Below, one piece after another: positions 2,128 to 50,290 of a stretch of 64,000 bases of DNA. Position 1 is the stretch's first letter. Each line of letters starts with the position of its first letter. The stretch lies in the NCBI GenBank assembly GCA_049903315.1, contig JBNGBT010000005.1, forward strand, positions 32,001-96,000. The letters are read 5' to 3'. The notes beneath the pieces were generated by a model. That model had not been told where the DNA came from. It did not search any database and saw only the letters and a list, made by a program, of their open reading frames with translations. The translations under genes and the position numbers were made by a program. Origin of the DNA: Candidatus Cloacimonadota bacterium (GTDB lineage Bacteria > Cloacimonadota > Cloacimonadia > JGIOTU-2).

Positions 2128-2280
2128 GGAATTTGAAACTTGAAACTTGAAATTGGGAAAAAGAAAATGGCTCACGGATTTACACTGATCAACACTGATT
2201 CATAAAAAATTATAAAGAAGAGAATATATTGAATTCTTAATCTGTTTTCATTGGTGAAAATTCGTGTTAATTCGTGGTTA
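2128..2280. repeat. Heptamer tandem repeat (gaaactt) plus an inverted pair of 9-10-nt periodic repeats
   Basis: gaaacttgaaacttgaaatt; cacggatttacactgatcaacactgatt (2173-2200); gtgaaaattcgtgttaattcgtggtta (2254-2280). Confidence 0.6.
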
Positions 2281-24221: not shown

Positions 24222-24276
24222 ATATAAGAAAATTTACTCTAAGTATAAATAAAGTGTTAAAGGGAGAGAGGTAAAA

Positions 24277-24340
24277 TGGTCTGGGCGAGAAGATTCGAAC
24301 TTCCGACCTTCCCGATCAATCGGGACGCGCTAATCGGGCT
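24277..24340 (-). pseudogene. Partial tRNA-Pro(UGG) copy with the anticodon arm replaced by hairpin TCCCGATTGATCGGGA
   Basis: Direct repeat of 24610-24674 with 2 substitutions outside the swapped arm; 5' acceptor strand missing. Confidence 0.9.
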
Positions 24341-24348
24341 ATGTTAAG

Positions 24349-24594
24349 TTATTTTTGAGAATTGATGAGTGAGAAAATAAACTTTTTACTTTTTTTGGAT
24401 TTGATGAAGTATTCTTTTTTCATTGCCTCAGAGCGTGTAGTGAAGGATTCTTTATAAACCAATTTCCAAGGGCTACGATGTTTGGTATATGTAGATTGAT
24501 CGGAATTATGCTCGTGGATTCTTCTTTGAAGTTTGTTTGTTGTTCCTATGTAGAATGAGTTCTTCTCATTCTGTAAAATATAAACATAAACCAT
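24349..24594 (-). CDS. Stand-alone GIY-YIG nuclease (Slx1/UPF0213-like)
   Basis: YVYIL...FYIG.T..L.RR..EHN...YTK...PW.LVY.E......A...E..IK. Confidence 0.92.
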   Translation of the reverse strand: MVYVYILQNEKNSFYIGTTNKLQRRIHEHNSDQSTYTKHRSPWKLVYKESFTTRSEAMKKEYFIKSKKSKKFIFSLINSQK

Positions 24595-24609
24595 AATTTT
24601 CCTATAAAA

Positions 24610-24687
24610 TGGTCGGGGCGAGAAGATTCGAACTTCCGACCTCCTGGTCCCAAACCAGGCGCGCTAACCGGGCTGCGCTACGCCCCG
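24610..24687 (-). tRNA. tRNA-Pro (anticodon TGG)
   Basis: CGGGGCG...CGCCCCG-ACCA; anticodon arm CCTGG-TTTGGGA-CCAGG. Confidence 0.96.
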
Positions 24688-49943: not shown

Positions 49944-49975
49944 ACTCAGTTAAACACATAACCACGAATTTGACG

Positions 49976-50003
49976 AACCGCTGGATTTCCAGCGGTTTTG
50001 TTT
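49976..50003 (+). terminator. Probable terminator hairpin
   Basis: aaccgctgga-tt-tccagcggtt followed by ttgttt. Confidence 0.6.
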
Positions 50004-50150: not shown

Positions 50151-50225
50151 GCGGGTTTAACTCAGTGGTAGAGTATTAGCTTCCCAAGCTAAGGGTCGCG
50201 AGTTCGAATCTCGTAACCCGCTCCA
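50151..50225 (+). tRNA. tRNA-Gly (anticodon CCC)
   Basis: GCGGGTT...AACCCGC-TCCA; anticodon arm TTAGC-TTCCCAA-GCTAA. Confidence 0.96.
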
Positions 50226-50233
50226 TATTTTTG

Positions 50234-50290
50234 TAACCACCCGGCTTCTTTCCAATACGCCGCGGCAGGTGAATTAACACGAATTTTCAC
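50234..50290 (+). repeat. 27-bp periodic repeat interrupted by a 30-nt GC-rich insert
   Basis: taaccac[ccggcttctttccaatacgccgcggcaggt]gaattaacacgaattttcac; flanks equal the reverse complement of 2254-2280. Confidence 0.75.

Follow-up and report, generated by a model that had tools for sequence, protein, structure and literature searches.

The window, the whole 64,000-nucleotide stretch of DNA that was analysed (contig JBNGBT010000005.1 of a Candidatus Cloacimonadota bacterium), carried a tRNA-Gly gene followed by a short ladder repeat that was interrupted by a 30-nt unit. The features of the window that bear on this unit were as follows.

49959–49969, plus strand: degenerate ladder fragment, 11 nt, unfilled
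50151–50225, plus strand: tRNA-Gly(CCC), with different repeats in its 3' flank in different congeners
50234–50239, plus strand: left part (TAACCA) of the host ladder repeat, up to the CA^C insertion point
50240–50269, minus strand: micro-element, 30 nt, placed by the covariation-derived register and copy comparison
50270–50290, plus strand: right part of the host ladder repeat, with first base T here and C in orthologous empty alleles
2254–2280, minus strand: empty paralogous ladder copy, 23/27 identical to the arm downstream of a GxxExxY gene on contig C33
2173–2201, plus strand: facing ladder arm (CACGGAT/CACTGAT words), which on sequence reading forms a gene-less inverted pair with 2254–2280
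24349–24594, minus strand: GIY-YIG gene of 81 aa behind tRNA-Pro, originally predicted as candidate driver of the unit, tested and disfavoured here
24310–24325, strand not given: CCCGA-type palindrome, 16 nt, in place of the anticodon arm of a tRNA-Pro remnant

Excision of 50241–50270 left a 27-mer that matched the reverse complement of 2254–2280 at 27/27 positions, as the original prediction had stated. The filled repeat began 8 nt past the end of the tRNA-Gly gene, and no target duplication was present at the insert, both also as predicted. A third copy had been placed at 49959–49977, but the match extended over 11 nt only (49959–49969). This shorter match was above chance, with two such 11-nt ladder matches in the window vs. 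0.02 expected, but was not conserved in genomes G004 or G006. The predicted size of 30 nt was retained, but the boundaries moved by one base, from 50241–50270 to 50240–50269. Among 94 30-mers of fixed geometry, 88 had the first base of the unit paired with the base that precedes the CARG tail (C–G in 67 and T–A in 21). Hence, the leading C belonged to the element and the unit occupied 50240–50269, which made the T at 50270 a host base (C in three orthologous empty alleles). The host matched 2254–2280 at 26/27 positions in this register; the target was CA^C, and the host C was changed to T in the window copy. A 1-nt target duplication was ruled out as a separate possibility, given the host C that followed T-start copies in 9 of the 16 cases with a T–A pair.

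The orthologous ladder was empty and had the same downstream flank in G004, G007 and G009, that is, in three of the eight congeneric tRNA-Gly loci (L002–L009). None of these eight loci was filled, and the ladder was absent or other repeats were present in the remaining five. The unit at 50240–50269 was a true insertion. The filled allele occurred without differences in the contigs of three of four sequencing runs, which may be the source samples, and the fourth run had no coverage of the site. The identical filled allele in these three runs excluded an assembly error. No empty allele of the site was seen in same-species contigs, which thus gave no sign of present activity of the element. The downstream flank of tRNA-Gly was a repeat hot spot that differed in nearly every congener. 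In G009 and G001 (L004, L007), the tRNA-Gly 3' end was duplicated, and the two ends enclosed other repeats together with an NTS-like hairpin. A ladder of GAAACTT/GAAATT words, like those that flank four-helix-bundle genes, lay at 2127–2158 of the window, immediately upstream of the empty ladder pair.

A search of the source genome (G000) with a two-arm profile, for which only relatives served as the training set, gave 26 copies with scores above 20, including the window copy, vs. none in the reversed genome. Nearly all of the 26 copies sat within other short repeats. The right-arm pattern had 11–60 matches in five congeners and 1–3 in controls. The insert was thus far from unique, and the prediction of a very short GC-rich, non-autonomous unit with precise entry into another repeat family was borne out by these copies and the orthologous empty alleles. 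The congener set consisted of 117 copies parsed from 191 right-arm matches and rose to 136 with G000 added, a count that includes one false positive (the 52-nt G000:C4 row); three matches with only a right arm (C33:288457, L024, L025) were coding sequence. Among the 136 parsed copies, the length was 30 nt in 98, 39 nt in 21 and divisible by three in 126. The longer copies carried CCGCC..GGCGG or CCCGA..TCGGG palindromes in the loop, at times with a third insert nested inside.

The distribution of the element across 218 genomes of the phylum was patchy. Eight of nine genus members were rich in it, as were 13 genomes scattered through the phylum; the others were at background level. The strict pattern matched at least 118 stretches in GTDB, of which a few in GC-rich genomes may be due to chance. 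The 80 matches listed came from Cloacimonadota, Verrucomicrobiota, Planctomycetota, Lentisphaeria, deltaproteobacteria, Marinimicrobia and others, with no cyanobacterial title among them. Only three viral contigs matched the element. Rfam returned only tRNA and tmRNA matches in the window and ten loci, and the element had no curated model there. No description of the element or of the GxxExxY ladders was found in the literature covered, from which most subscription journals and all figures fell outside. The preprint bioRxiv 10.64898/2026.09.22.753630 deals with TwoAYGGAY and UG27. The 30-nt unit is almost certainly a real mobile element. A second insert family of 33 nt, ending in GGGCAGG (L016:1500-1560, L032, L033, L315), shared the A^C ladder target; it was found in frame in a T9SS-tail gene, and the same site was empty in G000 C70.

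The flanking bases of the 136 genus copies were C at −2 in 101, A at −1 in 108 and C at +1 in 105. The hosts were CACGAA, CACAGAG, CGCAAAG and GAAATTT-type ladders, other hairpin repeats, tRNA ends and other copies of the element; at L052, successive units of one ladder were each filled. The 27-mer host at tRNA-Gly was an arm of a GxxExxY-type ladder repeat family, one arm of which adjoined a GxxExxY gene, and six GxxExxY genes were present in G000. In other phyla (records without a Cloacimonadota title), C was found at +1 in 46 of 55 junctions and CA^C in 3 of 55. The +1 base was related to the internal pairing base of the element: T stood at +1 in 6 of 17 copies of the A type and in 2 of 71 of the G type (p = 0.0005). 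Such a correlation is compatible with pairing of a single base with the target, or with subfamilies that differ in their hosts. The host ladder was also seen inside reading frames of G000 (C3:43265, C11:344954, C22:202000, C44:232517 and C8:28484), in genes whose ends resembled T9SS-tail domains. The ladder within these frames looked like an older in-frame insertion. At G000 C44:12300-12604, a four-helix-bundle gene was frameshifted where a CCGCC..GGCGG palindrome sat inside it.

Filled and empty alleles were also compared at other loci. Pairs of reverse polarity were found, in which relatives were filled where G000 or another congener was empty (L074 filled vs. L099/L121 empty, with 30/30 bases identical across the junction; L016/L089 filled vs. 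G000 C70 empty; L017/L093 filled vs. G000 C11 empty). The pairs included in-frame insertions within genes. A strict automatic orthology test of the 117 copies gave 2 clean empty sites, 66 without synteny, 47 unalignable and 2 also filled. A looser test gave 9 empty sites among 136, of which L097 and L104 were tandem-array artefacts, and it missed the window site, for which a 1-nt indel immediately upstream is the probable cause. The small yield of the automatic tests arose mostly because the flanks were non-syntenic or unalignable at 70–85% identity.

The minus strand of the window copy comprised, in order, a CCTG tag, the stem strand CC-n-CGGC, GTA, a 2-bp stem with a GGA triloop, GAA, and the stem strand GCCG-GG. 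The minus-strand plan was one CCTG tag, a bulged 6-bp stem and three GNA motifs, a pattern that is typical of hairpins of single-stranded DNA. Two-sided changes were found among 61 distinct sequences at pairs 5–30 (17), 6–29 (8), 15–21 (25) and 16–20 (22), whereas pair 10–26 was unpaired in 50 of the 61. The covariation score was reached by none of 500 shuffles, and 85% pairing was obtained for the proposed structure vs. 20–44% for slid controls, although the structure was tested on the same sequences from which it was derived. The tag was CCTG or CTTG in all 61 aligned copies. The middle of the loop was TNC in 90 of 94 copies, which is GNA on the minus strand, and many loops were exactly GCGNAGC or had a GNA triloop closed by a 2-bp stem that covaried. 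GCGNAGC is described as a mini-hairpin DNA motif in PMC13037366, where it is a structural motif and not, as here, part of a mobile element. The GNA loops and this match suggest that the minus strand folds as single-stranded DNA, and this strand would be the functional one. The variants closed by A–T, including the window copy, may be less stable than the GCGNAGC mini-hairpin. The lone 30-mer folded no better than shuffles (z of 0.3 and −0.5), with sheared pairs lying outside the folding model.

The plus strand was nearly free of stops (1, 1 and 16 of 94 copies by frame vs. 85, 2 and 57). Long reading frames held 13 copies on the same strand and 2 on the opposite strand, and about ten of these frames were credible genes. 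In the loci that were read, protein inserts of 10 or 13 residues were present in seven T9SS-tail-type genes and three copies of one other gene.

Five short GIY-YIG genes were present in G000. One of them, at C55:229692-229937 behind the tmRNA, encoded 82 aa with PF01541 as its only domain and belonged to a clade termed clade A. Its protein was 36% identical to the window GIY-YIG, and clade A was split from the window-type clade by a 100/99 branch. A single-sequence AlphaFold model of clade A had a pLDDT of 52. Element arms lay upstream of 25 of 30 clade-A loci of the phylum vs. 0 of 24 window-type loci. At clade-A loci, an expanded copy of the element formed the leader between the tRNA or tmRNA end and the start codon. 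The left arm of this leader began at CCA^CCA, restoring the CCA end, and the loop measured between 7 and about 95 nt; the right arm ended in GGCAGG and was followed by CCA in 32 of 46. Of the 98 clade-A loci from phylum and metagenome data together, 68 had the left arm starting directly at the tRNA or tmRNA 3' end, and 49 had the hairpin once more in reverse orientation inside or after the leader, compared with 3 for the control. In G000, the loop of the inner leader hairpin was the commonest loop among the micro-elements. A model of the unit as the joined ends of a nuclease transposon did not fit, as both arms lay upstream of the open reading frame. Sibling units with the same stem and other tails (TAAA, GAAC; L046:640-670 on the minus strand, L139, L153, L063) plugged a duplicated leader downstream of clade-A genes. 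The clade-A genes at L138 and L143 had a different leader starting with CCATCTTTCGC, which suggests a sub-clade with its own hairpin.

Outside the genus, clade A was present in 10 of 13 genomes rich in the element and in 24 of 196 poor in it; within family f8, the corresponding counts were 9 of 11 and 13 of 48. The p-values for such comparisons are overstated because related genomes are non-independent. In favour of the link, two genomes with no intact clade-A gene retained remains of it at the tmRNA, namely internally deleted tandem copies in G007 and a leader stump in G009. Deviating genomes were found on both sides. G009 had the most element copies of all (60) despite its lack of an intact gene. 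Neither a clade-A gene nor a leader was found in the element-rich genomes G161, G186 and G147, of which G147 was near the control level. Conversely, 24 genomes outside the genus and G003 had a clade-A gene but few elements. Clade A is somewhat favoured as the partner of the element. The leader could instead reflect passive insertion into a tRNA end and have no bearing on partnership.

The window GIY-YIG at 24349–24594 had been put forward as the driver in the original prediction. Its type was present in 8/8 scored congeners and, outside the genus, showed a weak enrichment (5 of 13 element-rich vs. 25 of 196 element-poor genomes, p = 0.02), and the CCCGA palindrome type of 24310–24325 also nested in the loop of some copies. 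However, the element motif was found at none of the 24 related loci, 19 of which were flanked by CCCGA or CCGCC palindromes in tRNA remnants, and within f8 the gene type was not associated with element richness (5 of 11 vs. 15 of 48, p = 0.48). A role for this gene as driver is very improbable, and clade A fits much better. As a separate observation, GIY-YIG genes linked to tRNA-Pro, tRNA-Asn and tRNA-Asp (window 24272–24337 and 24349–24687, L047, L048) were each followed by a partial tRNA copy, an arm of which was replaced by a 16-nt CCCGA- or CCGCC-type palindrome. Mobilisation in trans by an HUH transposase of the Y1/RAYT type, with the GIY-YIG leader as one more insertion site, was rated unlikely, although the 4-nt tag with a bulged hairpin, the strand asymmetry and the absence of duplication are compatible with HUH chemistry. 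G000 had four Y1_Tnp matches, and the relation of the +1 base to the internal base is what a guide would predict. Against this route, the motif was found at none of the four Y1 loci of G000 (inspected by eye over about 230 nt of upstream and 270 nt of downstream sequence), the tag was neither GTAG nor CGTC, and the leader was conserved with one GIY-YIG clade across many metagenomes. Trans mobilisation by such a transposase has been proposed for REPs.

An element without its own enzyme might also be copied from filled to empty ladders through homing or gene conversion, possibly started by GxxExxY cutting. The hosts were multi-copy ladders flanking GxxExxY genes, with 25–36 intact copies for each of three word types, and G003, the sole genus member without GxxExxY, had few elements. 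However, the hosts included unrelated repeats sharing only 1–3 nt, from the four ladder types to hairpin repeats and tRNA ends, and CA^C was rare outside Cloacimonadota-titled records. GxxExxY was present in 63 of 94 f6 genomes, none of which had more than five pattern matches or clade A, so that GxxExxY is insufficient. Moreover, the in-frame gene insertions at L017 and L093 lean toward single-copy sites without homology to the filled copies. This route is rated unlikely. An RNA route, in which a tRNA-trailer transcript is reverse-transcribed at a nick by target priming, would benefit from the fusion of the expanded copy to tRNA or tmRNA CCA ends, with which it would be co-transcribed. The GNA and mini-hairpin signature nevertheless lay on the strand opposite to the transcript and is a DNA motif, and no Rfam match was obtained for the element; an RNA intermediate is quite improbable.

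The preferred reading, with a rough probability of 0.55, is a gene-less 30-nt mobile hairpin that enters other short repeats and tRNA ends at A^C without target duplication and is likely moved as single-stranded DNA by a clade-A GIY-YIG. The minus strand would fold in exposed single-stranded DNA. The clade-A nuclease would then bind the CCTG-tagged hairpin and cut at its foot, by analogy with the cut of SsnA beside a tagged hairpin. Host repair might afterwards join the freed, folded 30-mer into a break in a different repeat, a speculative step in which about one base would pair at the junction. The least certain step is that ladders would be preferred since they may often be broken or single-stranded, perhaps through their own GxxExxY nuclease. 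GIY-YIG enzymes are hydrolytic nucleases and are not known to have a joining activity. This chemistry of binding, cutting, repair and joining, modelled on SsnA, is doubtful. The single-domain GIY-YIG SsnA binds its tagged hairpin as single-stranded DNA, for just one of the two strands, and cleaves a few bases upstream (PMC11893778).

In its behaviour the unit is similar to SDRs, tagged REPs and SRM/Ssn, but it departs from each in a defining feature. SDRs are reportedly very small mobile cyanobacterial repeats of 21–27 nt, without duplication and with codon-multiple lengths, said to have been described by Elhai and colleagues in 2008. The likeness lies in a gene-less unit of tens of nucleotides that enters other repeats precisely without target duplication. 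The unit differs from SDRs in length (outside the reported range in the 98 copies of 30 nt and 21 of 39 nt), phyla, its identified candidate partner enzyme and probably sequence. Precise insertion of SDR5 into HIP1 is confirmed in PMC4390886, and the Delihas review (PMC3184786) contained no SDR passage. According to PMC11893778, Ssn/SRM likewise comprises a single-domain GIY-YIG gene adjoining an oriented, tagged hairpin repeat that is multicopy in the genome; cleavage is shown there, and spread of the repeat is only hypothesised. Clade A resembled this arrangement (82 aa, PF01541 only, beside its own hairpin at 25 of 30 loci) but differed in its location at tRNA ends. The SRM/NTS consensus (GTCATTC...GAAT) was found at 0 of 29 and 0 of 69 clade-A loci, and clade A matched the SRM-flanked GIY-YIG of G000 only weakly (11 of 30 residues), the latter lying outside clade A on a long branch. 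Locus L049 (G000:C11:265116) encoded a 101-aa GIY-YIG with GTCATTCTGAGC hairpins on both sides and is likely an Ssn/SRM unit.

The GTAG/CGTC REPs with RAYT/TnpA-REP share with the element a 20–40-nt hairpin with an unpaired 4-nt tag, and certain tagged REP families are found inserted in other palindromes and, with the frame kept, in genes (PMC3733652). In contrast, the tag of the element was CCTG/CTTG, and its associated gene was a GIY-YIG rather than a Y1 transposase; copies flanking a Y1/RAYT gene were not seen by eye at the four Y1 loci of G000. The running text of PMC3733652 had no occurrence of CCTG, CAGG or GIY. The TIR and target-site duplication of a MITE of a DDE insertion sequence were not found; the element had an asymmetric 4-nt tail and at most one shared base.

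The family bears on how repeats of 20–40 nt (SDR-, SRM- or RPE-like) spread without a transposase, a question for which it offers a precisely defined unit and junction, empty alleles at orthologous sites, a covarying structure and one 82-aa candidate enzyme amenable to a simple oligonucleotide assay. A bolder proposal, which is tentative and perhaps true in a minority of outcomes, is that an 82-residue GIY-YIG suffices, unaided by any transposase, integrase or reverse transcriptase, to insert 30-nt folded single-stranded DNA without a scar, and that the hairpin base reads the junction base, so that a base-pair swap would retarget the unit. The unit would then parasitise the repeat arms of other small nuclease systems while itself hosting the palindromes of a sister GIY-YIG clade, a three-tier nest of nuclease-specific micro-elements across several phyla. 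Should the enzyme prove to cut or mobilise the unit, single-domain GIY-YIG proteins would gain, in a second large clade, a function beyond Ssn, and clade A may then offer a very small site-specific tool for single-stranded DNA.
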